A program made the position numbers and the translations under genes. From the IMG/VR virus record IMGVR_UViG_2537561977_000033: a stretch of 45,340 nt of DNA. One strand, 5' to 3'. Below, piece by piece: positions 1 to 45,340 of the stretch. The DNA comes from a virus. Its lineage: Duplodnaviria; Heunggongvirae; Uroviricota; Caudoviricetes. The notes under the pieces were generated by a model. That model made no database searches. It saw only the letters and a program-made list of their open reading frames with translations, and had not been told where the DNA came from. Positions within the stretch are counted from its first letter, which is position 1. Every line of letters starts with the position of its first letter.

Positions 1-1284
1 TTACAGACTTCTGGAAGGTTGCGCAGCTCTTACAACACGCGGTTGATCTTCCGCAGCGTCTTCCAGCGCACTTAAATCACGGTCTTTCACCTCTGGCATT
101 TTCAGCGCAGAGATTAAACCAATTACTGAATATGCCATGATCATAATGGCGATCGGATACCAGGATTCCGTCATGGTGCAGAAAATACCCGCCAGGATAG
201 GACCAAAACCGGAAGCGATAAGACCACCAATTTCTTTAGAAATAGCCATCCGGGTAAAGCGGTTTTTACAGCCGAACATTTCTGCCATGGTAATGTTTTC
301 CAGAGCAAATAATCCCAGCACCGCACAGTTATGAATCACAATCAGTGCAACCATAATGGTGCTCGGGGCATAGCTTTTATCTACAATGATAGAAAGCATT
401 GGCCATGCCAGCACAATCGCGGAGGTATTCATAATAATATACGGGATCCGGCGACCAATTTTATCGGATAACCAACCAAGGAACGGAATGGTCATAAAGC
501 CGAGAATCGAACTAATCATCAATGCATCTGTTGGAATTGCTTTGTTAAACAATAACGTCTGCACTAAATAGCCTGCAAGGAAAGTCTGAATTAACCCGGA
601 GTTACCCGCCTGACCAAAACGCAGCCCTGTTGCCAGCCAGAAGGATTTGCTCTGGAACATGCTACCAGCAGGTGCAGGTTTTGCTGTGGGTTGGTTGCTG
701 TCATTAACCTTCTCAAAGACCGGGCTTTCTTTCAGATTCATACGTAACCAGATAGCAAAGACCATCACGACAACGCTCGCCAGGAACGGTATACGCCATC
801 CCCACGCCAGCAGTTCCTCTTTACTGAGAATGAAGAACATAAAGGCCCAGATTGCCGTTGCGCTCAAGGTTCCGCAGTTAGTTCCCATAGCTACAAATGA
901 GGAGATAATTCCGCGCTTACCTTTTGGTGCATATTCCGCCAGCATCGTACCGGCACCGGAAATTTCCGCACCTGCACCCAACCCCTGAATAATACGCAGC
1001 GTCACCAGCAAGATGGGGGCAAAAACACCAATCTGTGCATAGGTCGGTAACACACCAATTAAGGTGGTACAGATCCCCATCATGGTGATGGTAATAAAGA
1101 GCACTTTTTTACGCCCTATTCTGTCGCCCATTTTGCCGAAAATAAATGCTCCGACAATACGCGCCACATAACCCTCACCGTAGGTTCCCATTGCCAAAAT
1201 TAACGCCATTGCCGTTGATGATTCAGGAAAAAATATTTCATGAAACACTAACGCTGCGCCGAGCGAATATAACTGGAAATCCAT
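1..1284 (-). CDS. ydfJ: MFS-family transporter, 427 aa, probably N-terminally shortened
   Basis: Long minus-strand ORF with multiple hydrophobic segments and MFS loop motif GKMGDRIGRKK only ~50 aa from the start; matches my memory of E. coli YdfJ. Stop codon at 1-3. Confidence 0.75.
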   Translation of the reverse strand: MDFQLYSLGAALVFHEIFFPESSTAMALILAMGTYGEGYVARIVGAFIFGKMGDRIGRKKVLFITITMMGICTTLIGVLPTYAQIGVFAPILLVTLRIIQGLGAGAEISGAGTMLAEYAPKGKRGIISSFVAMGTNCGTLSATAIWAFMFFILSKEELLAWGWRIPFLASVVVMVFAIWLRMNLKESPVFEKVNDSNQPTAKPAPAGSMFQSKSFWLATGLRFGQAGNSGLIQTFLAGYLVQTLLFNKAIPTDALMISSILGFMTIPFLGWLSDKIGRRIPYIIMNTSAIVLAWPMLSIIVDKSYAPSTIMVALIVIHNCAVLGLFALENITMAEMFGCKNRFTRMAISKEIGGLIASGFGPILAGIFCTMTESWYPIAIMIMAYSVIGLISALKMPEVKDRDLSALEDAAEDQPRVVRAAQPSRSL

Positions 1285-1887
1285 AATTCACAGGTGTTTT
1301 TTCCCATCCTGTGGTTTCCTTGGCGTTTTCTAGGTTTTTTCAGATAGTTGCATTTTTTAAAAAGCATCCTAAGTTCGATCTCAGTGTCTATCTGGGGCCT
1401 ATTTCTGTCCCATATATGCCCCAAAAAAACTCCCCAACAGATAAGTAGCTTTTTCATGGATTTATGCGTAAAATCAAGAACGGCTGGAAATCATTCAATA
1501 CTCACACTATCGAAAAATTTACCAGCCAACCGCAGCACGTTCTTGCATAAGGCGTGTCTGCGGTTTTTCAACTATTCAGATACATCACTCCCATCACATT
1601 CATTCCTCCGCATCAAAGGCATATAGGCTATATCACCTTGATATTTTTCTTTTTCAGATAAAAACTGTTATCTATGTATACTTTTAAACCCAATCCGTGT
1701 AGAGTCTCTGCATAAGATAGTTTGCAGTTGCCGCTTCAGCTTGCGCCATAAATCGCCTGATTTTTGCTGCCACCTGTTAGCATTCCTGTATACCTGAAAC
1801 GACAATGTTTATCTACGAACTTTAAGAACACCCAAGATAAAAATTGTCAACTATATCATATATAACACATTACTAATTCGAGGCTAT

Positions 1888-2001
1888 ATGAACAGCATAC
1901 TGATAATCACATCTCTCCTTATCATATTCAGCATTTTTAGTCATGCCCTAATAAAATTAGGGATTGGCATATCCAATAACCCAGACAAAACCGATGTATA
2001 A
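1888..2001 (+). CDS. small hydrophobic peptide ORF, 37 aa ([37 protein letters not shown])
   Basis: ATG preceded by GAGG 5 nt upstream; single predicted TM helix; not in the supplied ORF track (too short). Speculative. Confidence 0.25.
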
Positions 2002-2069
2002 GTCAACATATCCTGAATCAGACATACAATATCGCAATGAAAATCAATAATATTTTAAGGAATATCTTC

Positions 2070-2303
2070 ATGAAATCAAAAGACACCCTAAAGTGGTTCC
2101 CTGCGCAGCTTCCTGAAGTAAGAATTATCCTAGGGGATGCTGTAGTGGAAGTAGCAAAACAGGGAAGACCTATCAATACCAGAACATTGCTTGATTACAT
2201 TGAAGGAAACATAAAGAAAAAATCATGGCTGGATAACAAAGAATTATTACAAACAGCGATATCAGTTCTTAAAGACAACCAAAATTTAAATGGTAAAATG
2301 TAA
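2070..2303 (+). CDS. ydfK: YdfK/YnaE-family small prophage protein, 77 aa from the internal Met
   Basis: ORF 2037-2303; AAGGAA Shine-Dalgarno precedes the ATG at 2070 (MKSKDTLKWFPAQLPEV...); recalled similarity to K-12 YdfK/YnaE. Confidence 0.55.
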   Translation: MKSKDTLKWFPAQLPEVRIILGDAVVEVAKQGRPINTRTLLDYIEGNIKKKSWLDNKELLQTAISVLKDNQNLNGKM

Positions 2304-2591
2304 TATAATAAACTTACTTTTTTATCATTTTTCCACTTTAACAACATTTTGCTCCACTTTTCCACGACCAAACAACTTGAAATCTGGTTAAAATAACACG
2401 CAACACTATTCTTCTTCCTTGAGTCCGCCCGGAACTCGAAAAACAAACCGAGTTAAAGCCATTTTTCACAAAATCGATTTTGGGTTTCACCAAAATTACG
2501 GGGTTGCATACGCATTCGTTTATTTTCGAACGTGTAGGTAATGCTGCCAACTTACTGATTTAGTGTATGATGGTGATTTTAAGGTGCTTGC

Positions 2592-2867
2592 GTGGCTTCC
2601 ATTTCCATCAGATGTCCTTCCTGCTCCGCTACTGAAGGCGTGGTGCGTAACGGCAAAAGCACTGCCGGACATCAGCGCTATCTCTGCTCTCATTGCCGTA
2701 AAACATGGCAACTACAGTTCACTTACACCGCCTCTCAGCCCGGTACGCACCAGAAAATCATTGATATGGCCATGAATGGCGTCGGATGTCGCGCCAGTGC
2801 ACGCATTATGGGCGTTGGCCTCAACACGGTTTTACGTCACTTAAAAAACTCAGGCCGCAGTCGGTAA
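2592..2867 (+). CDS. insA: IS1 InsA, 91 aa
   Basis: [43 protein letters not shown]... matches IS1 InsA from memory. Confidence 0.85.
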
Positions 2868-3289
2868 CCTCGCGCATACAACCGGGCAGTGATGTGATTG
2901 TCTGCGCTGAAATGGACGAACAGTGGGGCTACGTCGGTGCTAAATCACGTCAGCGCTGGCTGTTTTACGCGTATGACAGGATACGGAGGACGGTTGTGGC
3001 GCACGTCTTCGGTGAACGCACTCTGGCCACACTGGAGCGTCTTCTGAGCCTGCTGTCGGCCTTTGAGGTCGTGGTATGGATGACGGATGGCTGGCCGCTG
3101 TATGAATCACGCCTGAAGGGAAAGCTGCACGTTATCAGCAAGCGTTACACTCAGCGCATTGAGCGACATAATCTGAATCTGAGACAACATCTGGCAAGGC
3201 TGGGACGGAAGTCACTGTCGTTCTCAAAATCGGTGGAGCTGCATGACAAGGTCATCGGGCATTATCTGAACATAAAACACTATCAGTAA
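2786..3289 (+). CDS. insB: IS1 InsB reading frame, 167 aa (normally made as InsAB' by frameshifting)
   Basis: [16 protein letters not shown]...[13 protein letters not shown]... matches IS1 InsB; overlaps insA in another frame. Confidence 0.85.
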
Positions 3290-3395
3290 GTTGGAGTCAT
3301 TACCAACGTGTACATACAAATATGCACAAAAATAATCATAATTATTTTCTGAGATGCATTATGATATGAACACCAATTTCGTATAGAGTCTCACT

Positions 3396-3986
3396 ATGTC
3401 TCGAATTTTTGCTTACTGTCGGATATCAACGCTGGATCAGACCACCGAAAATCAACGCCGGGAAATCGAAAGTGCAGGTTTTAAAATCAAACCTCAGCAA
3501 ATAATCGAAGAACACATTAGCGGCTCAGCAGCAACCAGTGAGCGTCCTGGTTTTAACCGGTTGCTTGCTCGCCTGAAATGTGGTGATCAATTGATTGTGA
3601 CAAAACTGGATCGCCTTGGTTGTAATGCAATGGATATCAGGAAAACAGTGGAACAACTGACCGAAACAGGTATCAGAGTGCATTGCTTAGCATTGGGGGG
3701 CATTGACCTGACCAGTCCAACAGGAAAAATGATGATGCAAGTAATTTCAGCAGTCGCTGAATTTGAACGAGACCTTTTACTTGAACGCACTCATTCCGGG
3801 ATAGTAAGAGCCCGCGGCGCAGGGAAACGTTTTGGTCGACCACCTGTGTTAAATGAAGAACAGAAACAGGCGGTATTCGAACGAATTAAGTCAGGTGTAA
3901 GTATAAGTGCCATTGCCCGGGAATTCAAAACCTCGCGGCAAACCATTTTAAGAGCCAAAGCAAAACTTCAGACACCTGACATATAA
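3396..3986 (+). CDS. pin: Pin/Gin/Hin-family serine DNA invertase, 196 aa
   Basis: [20 protein letters not shown]... with the catalytic Ser in the YCRIS motif and a C-terminal HTH; matches Pin of E. coli cryptic prophages. Confidence 0.85.
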
Positions 3987-4082: not shown

Positions 4083-4658
4083 CTACGGCAGTGCTGGCCA
4101 TTCAATATCCTGTGCAGTTGACGTATCAACACGGTTCAGCAATACCCGATACTTTTTCCATGCTTCCAGCAACGAGATTTCTTCCTCCGTTGCAATTTCC
4201 AGATCTGCAGCATCCTGAAGCGGCGCAATATGCTCACTGGCTACCTGCATCAGGTTGTTTTTTGTTTCTTCCGCCTCCCGGATCCGGAACAGTTTTTCTG
4301 CTTCCGTATCCTTCACCCAGGCTGTGCCGTTCCACTTCTGAAACTCCCCTTCCGGCGATAACCAGGTAACATTTTCCGGTAACGGACCGAGTTCAGAAAT
4401 AAATAACGCGTCGCCGGAAGCCACGTCATAAACCGTTTTACCCCGATGATCTTCAACGAGATGCCACGATGACTCATCACTGTTGAAAACAGCCACGAAG
4501 CCAGCCGGAATATCTGGCGGTGCAATATCGGTACTGTTTGCTGGCAGACCTGTATGAGGCGGAATATATGCATCACCTTCACCAATAAATTCATTAGTTC
4601 CGGCCAGCAGATTATAAATTTTTATGGTCCGTGGTTGTTCACTCATTCTGAATGCCAT
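4083..4658 (-). CDS. tfa: tail fiber assembly protein, 191 aa
   Basis: Immediately downstream of the fiber gene with start/stop overlap at 4656-4660; sequence matches remembered TfaQ/lambda Tfa. Confidence 0.8.
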
Positions 4659-6313
4659 TATGCAAGCCTCACAATATAGTTAAATGCGATGTTTTTGACG
4701 GTGTTTTCCGCGTTACCAGCAGCGTTAACGGTGATGGTGTGTCCATGTGAACCAATCGCAACGGAGTGCGTATGAGCACCAATACCGACAGTATGTGCAT
4801 GTGCGCCTGCGCTTGCAGCAGTACCGGACAGCGAGTGGGTATGAGCACCATCTGATGATGTCTTCCCTGCATTACGAGTCTGGCCACTACCGCTTGTTGT
4901 GCTCATAATCCCCGCGCTTAGATTTGAAATCGCGGTATAACCATTAGGGAAAATGCTCGTGTTCGTGCCACCAAATGCACCGGAACTCTTGTGTTGGTGC
5001 GCACCGGCACTATTTGCGGTCCCGCTAATACTATGGGTATGCGCCCCGGTGTTATTCGTGGATTTGGTTCCGTAATCAAACGACGATGTGGTTTTCGTCC
5101 CCAAATCCGTACTGGATGCGCTGGCGCTGTGGGTGTGCGATTTAATGCCGTCCTGTTCCTGAGTTAATACGGCCCGACCACTGGCGGGCTTGCCCTTAAT
5201 CGTCCAGCCACGCATATCAGGGATCACGCCTGACGGATAAGCAACTGCAAGTTTCGGGTATGCAGATTTGTCAAAAGTCTGCCCCTGCATCAGGGCATAA
5301 CCAGACGGAACGGTATCTGATGGCCACGGGATTGGTGCACCGACTGGATAAAACTCTGCAGGAGGATGAGCCGAGGTGTAAAGCTGCGCCCACGGCGACC
5401 AGTTTGCGTCGGTCGTATCCCGTCGTGAACGAATAAATGCCGGAGCATGAGCACCGCTTGTACCACTCCAGCCGATGAGTAACTCACCTTCGCCAACGGC
5501 TGTCATCCCTTTCAGGTGAATGATATTTCCATACGCTGTTGGATATCCGTTGTTATACACCTCGTATAACTCAAGACCTGCTGCCCCCTGCGTATTGTCT
5601 GTCAGCGCGGTTACCCGACCTTTTGAAGCCAGATTAACTGATGATACTGCTGTTCCACCTGACGGTAACGCCCCGATCTCTGATGCCGTTGGCTTATTTC
5701 TGGAGTTATAGTCCCTTCGCCAGCCAGGTGAATAATCTGTTCCGTGATTAATATAGGTAAACTGGGCGTTAGTTGTTCCACCACCAGTGGAGGTGGTCGG
5801 TGTGGTAATGCGGATCGTCATCGCTGACTTTATCCCCATTACTTCAATGACAGCTCCGGCGAGATGAATATTACCGCAGTCAGTATCAGTAATGATTTTA
5901 TTATTGCCATAAGACCAGGACCCCTTGCACATCCAGTAGGGATGGTTAAATGCTCCCTGAGAATCCAGCCACTCGATAAACTGTGCAGTCGTCCAGTTTC
6001 CTGTTGTTGTGCTTACTGACCCACCGAAGGCACGGCAGGCACCAATATTTTTCGTAAAGGTATCTTTGCCAGGGATATCCGCACCGTTCTGATCTTTCTG
6101 CAGACGTTTCTCAGCATTGTCATTGGCTGCTTTTACTGCCTTTGGCGTTGCCGCCAGCGTTTCAGACGTGCTGTTGGTCGCGCTGCTTAACTGGATTATC
6201 CCTTTGTGCTGTCGTTGCATCCTGTGCGGTGTATTTCCCGTTAGCCAGGTCATACGCGGCCTTAACGGCTTTTGGCGTTGCCGCCTGTGACTCGGAAGTG
6301 CTGTTGGTCGCAC
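4658..6313 (-). CDS. stf: side tail fiber, C-terminal distal part; frame differs from the upstream stf part, real translation start unclear
   Basis: C-terminus ...[40 protein letters not shown] matches lambda Stf; carries the conserved box [26 protein letters not shown] near its N-terminus; first ~35 codons look like out-of-frame read-through. Confidence 0.7.
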
Positions 6314-43773: not shown

Positions 43774-44025
43774 ATGAGCGAAGTAATCATGATTGTCTCT
43801 CCCGGCAAATGGGTATCCGAAGAGCAGTTAATTGCGCTGAAAGGAATAAAAAAAGGTACGTTAAAAAAGGCCCGGGAAAAATCGTTTATGGAAGGAAGGG
43901 AATATAAGCATGTCGCTCATGACGGTATGCCATGGGATAACAGTCCATGCTTTTACAACCTGGAAGAAATTGATCGCTGGATTGAGCGCCAGGCATCAGC
44001 GAGACCAAGACGTCATCTTACTTGA
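43774..44025 (+). CDS. xis: excisionase-like small protein, up to 83 aa
   Basis: Small basic protein immediately upstream of the integrase; alternative start MIVSPGKW... Confidence 0.45.
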   Translation: MSEVIMIVSPGKWVSEEQLIALKGIKKGTLKKAREKSFMEGREYKHVAHDGMPWDNSPCFYNLEEIDRWIERQASARPRRHLT

Positions 44026-44044: not shown

Positions 44045-45340
44045 ATGAGAGAAGTTGAAATGAAATATCCGACAGGCGTGGAAAACCATGGAGGGAAATT
44101 ACGTATCTGGTTTGTTTATAAAGGCGTAAGAGTCAGGGAAAATCTGGGGGTTCCTGACACAGCAAAAAACAGGCGCGTTGCAGGTGAACTACGCTCCTCT
44201 GTTTGTTACGCAATAAAAACTGGTGTTTTCGACTATGCAAAACAGTTTCCCTCCTCACGCAATCTGGAAAAATTTGGTGAGGCCCGACAAGATTTAACCA
44301 TAAAAGAACTGGCTGAAAAATTTCTGGCACTGAAAGAAACTGAAGTCGCCAAAACATCACTCAACACATACCGTGCCGTCATCAAAAATATCCTGAGCAT
44401 AATCGGTGAAAAAAATCTTGCCTCATCGATTAATAAAGAAAAATTACTGGAGGTTCGTAAAGAGCTACTGACTGGATACCAGATCCCCAAAAGTAACTAT
44501 ATTGTTACACAACCAGGGAGATCGGCTGTAACTGTAAATAATTACATGACAAATCTTAACGCCGTGTTCCAGTTTGGTGTTGATAACGGTTACCTGGCAG
44601 ATAATCCGTTTAAGGGGATCTCGCCATTAAAGGAATCAAGAACCATTCCGGATCCTCTTTCGCGGGAGGAATTTATCCGTCTTATCGATGCGTGCAGAAA
44701 TCAGCAAGCAAAAAATTTATGGTGTGTTTCTGTTTATACTGGCGTTCGCCCTGGTGAGCTGTGTGCACTTGGATGGGAGGACATAGATCTGAAAAATGGA
44801 ACAATGATGATCAGGAGAAATTTAGCAAAAGACCGTTTCACGGTACCAAAAACACAGGCGGGAACCAATCGGGTCATTCATCTTATTAAGCCAGCAATCG
44901 ACGCTCTCCGGAGTCAGATGACATTAACGAGACTGAGCAAAGAGCATATCATTGATGTTCACCTCAGAGAGTATGGCAGAACAGAAAAACAAAAATGCAC
45001 CTTTGTTTTTCAACCTGAAGTGTCAGCGAGAGTAAAAAATTATGGTGACCATTTTACCGTTGACTCAATAAGGCAGATGTGGGACGCAGCGATAAAACGT
45101 GCCGGACTCCGCCATCGAAAATCATATCAGTCGAGACATACTTATGCCTGCTGGTCGCTGACAGCTGGTGCTAACCCGGCATTTATAGCAAACCAGATGG
45201 GCCATGCAGATGCGCAAATGGTATTTCAGGTATACGGAAAATGGATGTCTGAAAACAATAATGCACAGGTAGCTTTGTTAAATACACAGTTAAGCGAGTT
45301 TGCCCCAACCATGCCCCATAACGAAGCAATGAAAAATTAA
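44045..45340 (+). CDS. int: tyrosine integrase (phage integrase family), up to 431 aa
   Basis: C-terminal catalytic region with R (GVRPGELCALGWEDID), HxxR (SRHTYACW) and Tyr (VFQVYGKWM); stop at 45338-45340, the last bases of the window. Confidence 0.85.
   Translation: MREVEMKYPTGVENHGGKLRIWFVYKGVRVRENLGVPDTAKNRRVAGELRSSVCYAIKTGVFDYAKQFPSSRNLEKFGEARQDLTIKELAEKFLALKETEVAKTSLNTYRAVIKNILSIIGEKNLASSINKEKLLEVRKELLTGYQIPKSNYIVTQPGRSAVTVNNYMTNLNAVFQFGVDNGYLADNPFKGISPLKESRTIPDPLSREEFIRLIDACRNQQAKNLWCVSVYTGVRPGELCALGWEDIDLKNGTMMIRRNLAKDRFTVPKTQAGTNRVIHLIKPAIDALRSQMTLTRLSKEHIIDVHLREYGRTEKQKCTFVFQPEVSARVKNYGDHFTVDSIRQMWDAAIKRAGLRHRKSYQSRHTYACWSLTAGANPAFIANQMGHADAQMVFQVYGKWMSENNNAQVALLNTQLSEFAPTMPHNEAMKN

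Follow-up and report, generated by a model that had tools for sequence, protein, structure and literature searches.

The junction between a lambdoid prophage and the Escherichia coli transporter gene ydfJ

Described prophages at the ydfJ locus

In Escherichia coli K-12, the Qin prophage meets host DNA at a ydfJ'-ynfT-ydfK-pinQ junction, and the truncation of ydfJ by 28 codons that Qin has caused is already published (Ramisetty and Sudhakari, 2019; PMC6379469). For prophages of the ydfJ site, the legend to S7 Fig of Nakamura et al. (2021; PMC8112680) gives an att of 18 or 19 bp, and passages of the same paper describe the locus as occupied in many strains, including K-12. Here, we analysed a 45,340-nt stretch of DNA (hereafter the window; IMG/VR record IMGVR_UViG_2537561977_000033) and conclude, with very little room for doubt, that its positions 1273–1290 are the attL of a ~44-kb lambdoid prophage of the Qin/mEp460_ev081/HannyBb type integrated in ydfJ. 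We observed the truncation of the gene, read four att sequences, traced the adjoining arm to phage DNA and identified a small ORF; the finding as a whole is a rediscovery of the documented ydfJ junction.

The window prophage and Qin share their integration site, the 28-codon truncation of ydfJ and the gene order at the left end (ynfT, ydfK, pinQ, tfaQ), with 99.2% identity over window positions 1–2400. Qin has been reduced to a remnant of 20 kb and its intQ is degraded, whereas the prophage in the window appears to be full length (~44 kb, 1287–45340), with head, tail, lysis and replication genes and intact xis and int, and it further differs from Qin by an IS1 copy between ydfK and pinQ. Its closest match is PhiR42_1, an inducible phage from ECOR13 (95% coverage at 98.9% and 85% at 96.8% identity). 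With the PPydfJ prophages of STEC (PMC8112680) it has in common the attB in ydfJ, an att length of 18 or 19 bp and a conserved attP arm with the invariant TGTCCCATATATGCCCCA block, but the STEC prophages carry dinI-like genes and nleC/nleG effector cargo beside att instead of ynfT-ydfK. The ynaM-ynaE module of Rac, near uspF, is 99.2% identical to window positions 1526–2400, which span a hairpin, ynfT and ydfK, and its YnaM equals YnfT; its att and integrase system, however, is a different one, and the homology begins exactly at the hairpin. In layout the locus resembles lambda Int/att, with a tyrosine integrase and Xis by attP, a short dyad-like core and candidate arm sites that repeat on either side of the core, but it differs from lambda in that the att sequences have no similarity, the target lies inside a protein-coding gene that the phage leaves unrepaired, and Int binding at the arm sites is predicted.

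Truncated ydfJ and the four att sequences

Occupying window positions 1–1284 on the minus strand, ydfJ' is an ORF of 427 aa that corresponds to the 3' 1284 nt of ydfJ, a gene for an MFS transporter of the MHS family (TIGR00883 match of 452.1 bits, above the cut-off of 443.45), and its product begins MDFQLYSL (MDFQLYSLGAALVF). The first-pass annotation had called this gene 5'-shortened, pointing to how near its start the MFS loop motif GKMGDRIGRKK lies, and comparison with an intact allele agrees: the first residue of the motif is residue 50 of the ydfJ' ORF, and ydfJ of the prophage-free strain 15.03CC, located directly between ydfI and rspB, encodes 455 aa (annotated 1368 nt). The additional N-terminus of the 455-aa protein, MTIEKHERSTKDLVKAAVSGWLGTALEF, is followed by the Met that opens the window ORF, so that ydfJ', relative to the intact gene, is without codons 1–28 and the promoter. 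The check proposed against a truncation, namely a full-length ydfJ beginning at this same Met, came out in favour of truncation, since the uninterrupted gene starts 28 codons further upstream.

Because NCBIfam profile alignments of ydfJ' begin at position 37 of ShiA and 40 of ProP, later than those of the intact protein (positions 12 and 22 respectively), TM1 of YdfJ is predicted to be cut about in half; ydfJ', short of 28 residues at its N-terminus, did not show a complete 12-TM architecture with TM1. Two codons before the ATG at 1284 there is a TGA in the same frame, and therefore no replacement N-terminus is supplied by the phage; no Shine-Dalgarno (SD) sequence is evident upstream of this ATG. 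A consensus scan for promoters and terminators over positions 1100–2500 performed no better than on shuffled sequences (five promoter-like matches found versus 5.1 expected) and, being at chance level, is weak evidence on whether a promoter reading into ydfJ' is missing. The frame of ydfJ' is intact over its 427 codons, with 10–14 nucleotide differences from the intact and K-12-like alleles and a sole amino-acid difference from both, A37E in TM2, which results from a tandem double substitution (GCA to GAG, nt 1174–1175, codon 37). In a K-12-like genome, PGAP annotates the same 1284-nt stretch as a ydfJ pseudogene ('incomplete; missing N-terminus'), with ynfT and ydfK as the next genes. Because half of TM1 and the promoter are absent, we infer that ydfJ' is a pseudogene and that YdfJ function has been lost. 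In strain 2014C-4423 (segment 951–2412), ydfI, which is immediately downstream of ydfJ', is annotated as frameshifted, and this may reflect decay of the orphaned downstream gene.

Four att sequences were compared. The attB is that of 15.03CC, two free phages (HannyBb and mEp460_ev081) provided attP, and the window itself contains attL. Because the window ends at the int stop codon, attR was read from a sister genome, Ecol_AZ147, in which the xis-int segment matches that of the window at 100% identity. All four have in common a perfect core of 11 bp, GAAATCCATAA, at window positions 1276–1286, which occurs once in the window and lies within an imperfect att, CTKGAAATCCATAA(A)TTCA (1273–1290), with a length of 18 bp for attP and attL but 19 bp for attB and attR. 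These lengths agree with those in the S7 Fig legend of PMC8112680, a comparison by length alone with what that legend states. The shape of the core is dyad-like (TGAAAT-CCAT-AATTCA), and it contains CAT, the complement of the native Met29 codon ATG that is now the start codon of ydfJ'. In pairwise alignment, the window and 15.03CC are identical through position 1286, with no identity past it; on its left side of the core attL equals attB, and on the right it equals attP of HannyBb and mEp460_ev081. In both free phages, int, core and arm are contiguous, and the arm is 98–99.5% identical to window positions 1287–2036. The attR of Ecol_AZ147 is the reciprocal junction, with the core 37 nt past the int stop, then the 84-nt 5' end of ydfJ and then rspB. 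An att core had been expected within 1285–2036 and a second copy beyond the integrase. The junction is indeed there, but the core straddles the left edge of that interval and overlaps the ydfJ' start codon; the second copy is present in the sister genome, at a position that is outside the window.

The recombination genes lie at the opposite end of the window on the plus strand. The ORF at 43774–44025, taken as xis, is called 'excisionase' in records that are 100% identical or near-identical, and int (44045–45340) has tyrosine-recombinase family matches that are below the equivalog cut-offs of the Xer models, with identical genes annotated as 'site-specific integrase'. In the model that we favour, this tyrosine integrase put the prophage into codons 26–29 of the host transporter gene by recombination of attP (...CTTGAAATCCATAATTCA...) with attB (...CTGGAAATCCATAAATTCA...), splitting ydfJ in two. 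The ydfJ promoter and first 28 codons were thereby moved ~44 kb away, past int at the other end of the prophage and hence out of the window; there the int stop would be followed by CTTGAAATCCATAAATTCAAGCGC, then the 84-nt ydfJ 5' end, then rspB. The remaining 427 codons stayed beside ydfI, starting from the native Met29 codon that by chance lies inside the core. In the uninterrupted arrangement rspA, rspB, ydfJ and ydfI occur on one strand with short gaps, and the prophage interrupts this gene string. That integration into ydfJ had displaced the true N-terminus, as the first-pass annotation proposed, is borne out by the att comparison.

How often the site is occupied was assessed by megablast of window positions 1–2400 against 5426 complete E. 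coli genomes, many of which match only 1–1290. A 271-nt query spanning attB was uninterrupted (at least 80% covered) in 2009 of the 5426, the ydfJ'-ynfT-ydfK arm was present in 1986, and further genomes have other cargo behind the same att arm, for example dinI-like genes or nleC. The displaced 5' end of ydfJ can also be followed. In the Ecol_AZ147 attR (4640–4771 of its segment) it forms a 36-codon ORF, MTIEKHERSTKDLVKAAVSGWLGTALEFMDFKSHTC, that consists of the YdfJ N-terminus and eight phage-encoded residues. In K-12, the small protein YnfP (MTIEKHERSTKDLVKAAVSGWLGTALEFMDFKSHAC) has been detected by tagging (PMC6001520, Table 1), and it corresponds to the displaced YdfJ N-terminus fused to phage sequence, the attR peptide of Ecol_AZ147 being the same with one substitution. 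A minus-strand ORF that crosses the core (1248–1457, 69 aa; hypothetical in HannyBb) was dismissed: its C-terminus differs between attP and attL, and it has no family support.

Two other accounts of the short gene deserve consideration. That ydfJ is here a complete, naturally short gene starting from this Met, with ordinary intergenic AT-rich DNA beside it, might be argued from an ORF that stays open for 427 codons from an ATG and from a TIGR00883 score still over the cut-off (452 versus 443 bits). Against this, 2009 genomes have the 455-aa form, whose 28 further codons adjoin rspB, the profiles show that an N-terminal segment is missing, free phage genomes have the neighbouring DNA joined directly to int, and the ATG has no evident SD and an in-frame stop two codons upstream. 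The comparison of attB, attP, attL and attR refutes a naturally short ydfJ, to which we give practically no credence. Nor does it seem at all probable that an IS-mediated deletion or illegitimate recombination, in place of site-specific integration, truncated the gene. An IS1 does lie ~1.25 kb away (2537–3304), and other strains have ydfJ or int interrupted by IS elements; the junction, however, consists exactly of attB-left, core and attP-right, with the reciprocal product at attR, the IS1 has a clean 8-bp target duplication of its own and an empty site in relatives, and the same junction is found in ~2000 genomes without this IS1. Site-specific integration of the prophage at the ydfJ att is thus the reading that we retain.

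The phage arm, its hairpin and the ynfT-ydfK module

GC content is 0.28–0.40 over positions 1300–2400 versus 0.43–0.52 within ydfJ, and everything from 1287 onward is phage DNA. The description of 1285–2036 as an AT-rich non-coding arm needs qualifying, in that this segment is moderately AT-rich but carries ynfT and is not simply non-coding. Its first part, 1287–1436 on the plus strand, is the phage-derived attP arm on the int-distal side, the positional equivalent of the lambda P arm, and is contiguous with int and core in HannyBb and mEp460_ev081. From 1287 to ~1436 the arm is common to phages and prophages of the ydfJ site that have differing DNA downstream, with identities of ~77–98%.

Within the arm, two tandem repeats, TGTCCCATA and TGCCCCAAA (1406–1425, plus strand, 11 nt from start to start), are candidate Int arm-type sites, and the 18-nt block that covers most of them, TGTCCCATATATGCCCCA (1406–1423), is invariant among arms that are otherwise only ~77% identical. 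A second tandem pair, TGCCCCAAC and TGCCCCATA, likewise 11 nt apart, lies in the 3' end of int (45301–45320, plus strand), which in attP is across the core from the first pair; it too is a putative binding site. The shared motif TGYCCCAWM has four copies in the 45 kb, all on the plus strand and all beside att (1406/1417 and 45301/45312), a count that compares with 3.5 expected by chance for a motif derived from these same sites. Their placement and conservation, which are the whole of the support, suggest that the TGYCCCAWM pairs are Int arm-type sites. Directly beside the core there is also an inverted repeat, CACAGG-N13-CCTGTG (1290–1315), partly kept in the diverged arms of Stx phages as CATAGA...TTCTGTG, which may be a protein-binding site in the attP arm.

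Further into the prophage, folding and covariation both point to a conserved terminator-like hairpin on the plus strand at 1530–1568, CCGCAGCACG...CGTG-T-CTGCGG followed by TTTTT. Its 10-bp stem with one bulge (1530–1563) has a predicted folding energy of -20.7 kcal/mol (z = -4.1, plus strand), and in an alignment of 13 hairpin sequences 98.5% of cells are paired, with double compensatory changes at two pairs. Breakpoints of mosaic recombination cluster at the hairpin (1514, 1526, 1549 and 1563). It forms part of a conserved element of ~50 nt (window 1506–1568) that comprises a 5' flank, CACTATCGAAA..CCAGCCAA, the hairpin and the T-run, and for which, to our knowledge, no name exists. The element recurs in lambda, HK97, phi80, phiP27, mEp460, Rac and Qin-type phages between the end of the tail-fibre genes and the att/dinI region. 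In lambda its homologue lies between ea31 and ea47 (J02459, 24162–24210), 3.5 kb from att; in HK97 it lies ~50 nt past the separately annotated sib site; in mEp460 and phi80 it comes after dinI; and in phiP27, Rac-SA53 and SPF_0923 it is 3–14 nt downstream of a tail-fibre or tfa gene, on the opposite strand. Over several phages, the spacing to a tail-fibre or tail-fibre-assembly gene upstream on the opposite strand is 2–14 nt, typically 3. A homologue is also found at the Rac site of strain ECCNB20-2. These features argue for a conserved terminator-like boundary of lambdoid modules, with a putative function in termination.

An Rfam scan of positions 1000–3500 at E <= 1 returned only a sub-threshold match to the sRNA CssrB (RF02799) and a spurious miRNA match. 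CssrB was rejected at 25.3 bits versus a gathering threshold of 76, with only its 3' hairpin aligning, a match that the 1530–1568 hairpin produces when read on the opposite strand, and a literature search on CssrB found nothing relevant.

Downstream of the hairpin, the 37-aa ORF at 1888–2001 (plus strand) is ynfT, which encodes a small protein of the YnaM/YnfT family with a single TM segment. The family model NF041477 matches it at 63.9 bits over profile positions 1–34 of 34 (cut-off 35), and ynfT is also the PGAP name for a 37-aa ORF upstream of ydfK. The first-pass annotation was right that this hydrophobic ORF has a plausible ribosome-binding site, an SD (GAGG, 1880–1883) at a 4-nt spacing. 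The highest mean Kyte-Doolittle hydropathy in a 19-residue window is 2.52, and hydropathy of this kind indicates a single-pass membrane peptide. YnfT is identical in sequence to YnaM of K-12 and to 'YnfQ', encoded between ydfJ and ydfK. Both YnaM (Rac) and ynfQ (K-12 coordinate 1632890) were detected in K-12 by chromosomal SPA tagging (PMC6001520, Table 1; 2018), with comparatively high levels of YnaM reported for cells in normal growth, and the y-ome paper places ynfT first among the genes of the Qin region, which begins at coordinate 1632890.

The next gene, ydfK (2070–2303, plus strand), is a prophage gene annotated as 'cold shock protein YdfK' (WP_000836768.1); its longest ORF starts at 2037. 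Between ydfK and pinQ lies a 768-bp copy of IS1 (2537–3304, plus strand), identified by its ends, its length and an 8-bp target duplication, AACGTGTA. All of the hallmarks of IS1 are present, namely terminal inverted repeats, InsA and InsB ORFs and the target-site duplication, and an empty site is found in mEp460_ev081 and in a K-12-like genome. The ydfK/IS1 junction, as one high-identity piece, was absent from the complete E. coli genomes searched.

For the hairpin and for ynfT, other readings must be weighed as well. The hairpin could be the orthologue of lambda sib/tI, the retroregulator of int, given that it lies on the int-sense strand, 244–282 nt beyond the core, and ends in a T-run. The same scan applied to lambda picks a hairpin with a T-run ~140–190 nt beyond the lambda core, presumably lambda tI/sib itself. 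By blastn, however, the arm has no similarity to the int-att-sib region of lambda; moreover, the homologue of the element in lambda is 3.5 kb from att, that in HK97 is distinct from the annotated sib, and the element often sits just downstream of a tail-fibre or tfa gene on the opposite strand. We therefore consider sib orthology unlikely and reject it on the lack of similarity to lambda att-sib and the separateness from HK97 sib. The 37-aa ORF, for its part, might be taken for a chance ORF or for a type I toxin of the Hok/Ldr kind rather than an ordinary small membrane protein, being short, very hydrophobic, prophage-borne and among the y-ome genes. Yet a curated family model matches it well above the cut-off, and SPA tagging has revealed the identical protein at each of the two K-12 loci, data that refute a chance ORF. 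A toxic product is argued against by the comparative abundance of YnaM in normally growing cells, and the Rfam scan at E <= 1 gave no antisense RNA family; taken together, a chance ORF or a toxin is very improbable, and an ordinary small membrane protein remains our reading of YnfT.

For the ~50-nt element as a whole we offer a tentative suggestion, to which we attach a low probability: it might be an undescribed functional RNA or DNA element, a bidirectional terminator or processing site that would end int-sense and late transcripts, possibly with a CssrB-like sRNA on the opposite strand, and it might also act as a patch of homology for modular recombination.

Implications for the rspAB-ydfJ-ydfI locus

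Roughly two thirds of sequenced E. coli carry a split rspAB-ydfJ-ydfI gene string, and with the exact att coordinates the limits of the prophage can be set. Beyond the junction itself, two mildly interesting points are left over, namely YnfT, a small membrane protein that is expressed according to the K-12 tagging, and the conserved hairpin at the boundary of lambdoid modules. For the transporter, the 427-aa 'YdfJ' is best regarded as the product of a prophage-truncated pseudogene, and functional work should take the 455-aa allele.
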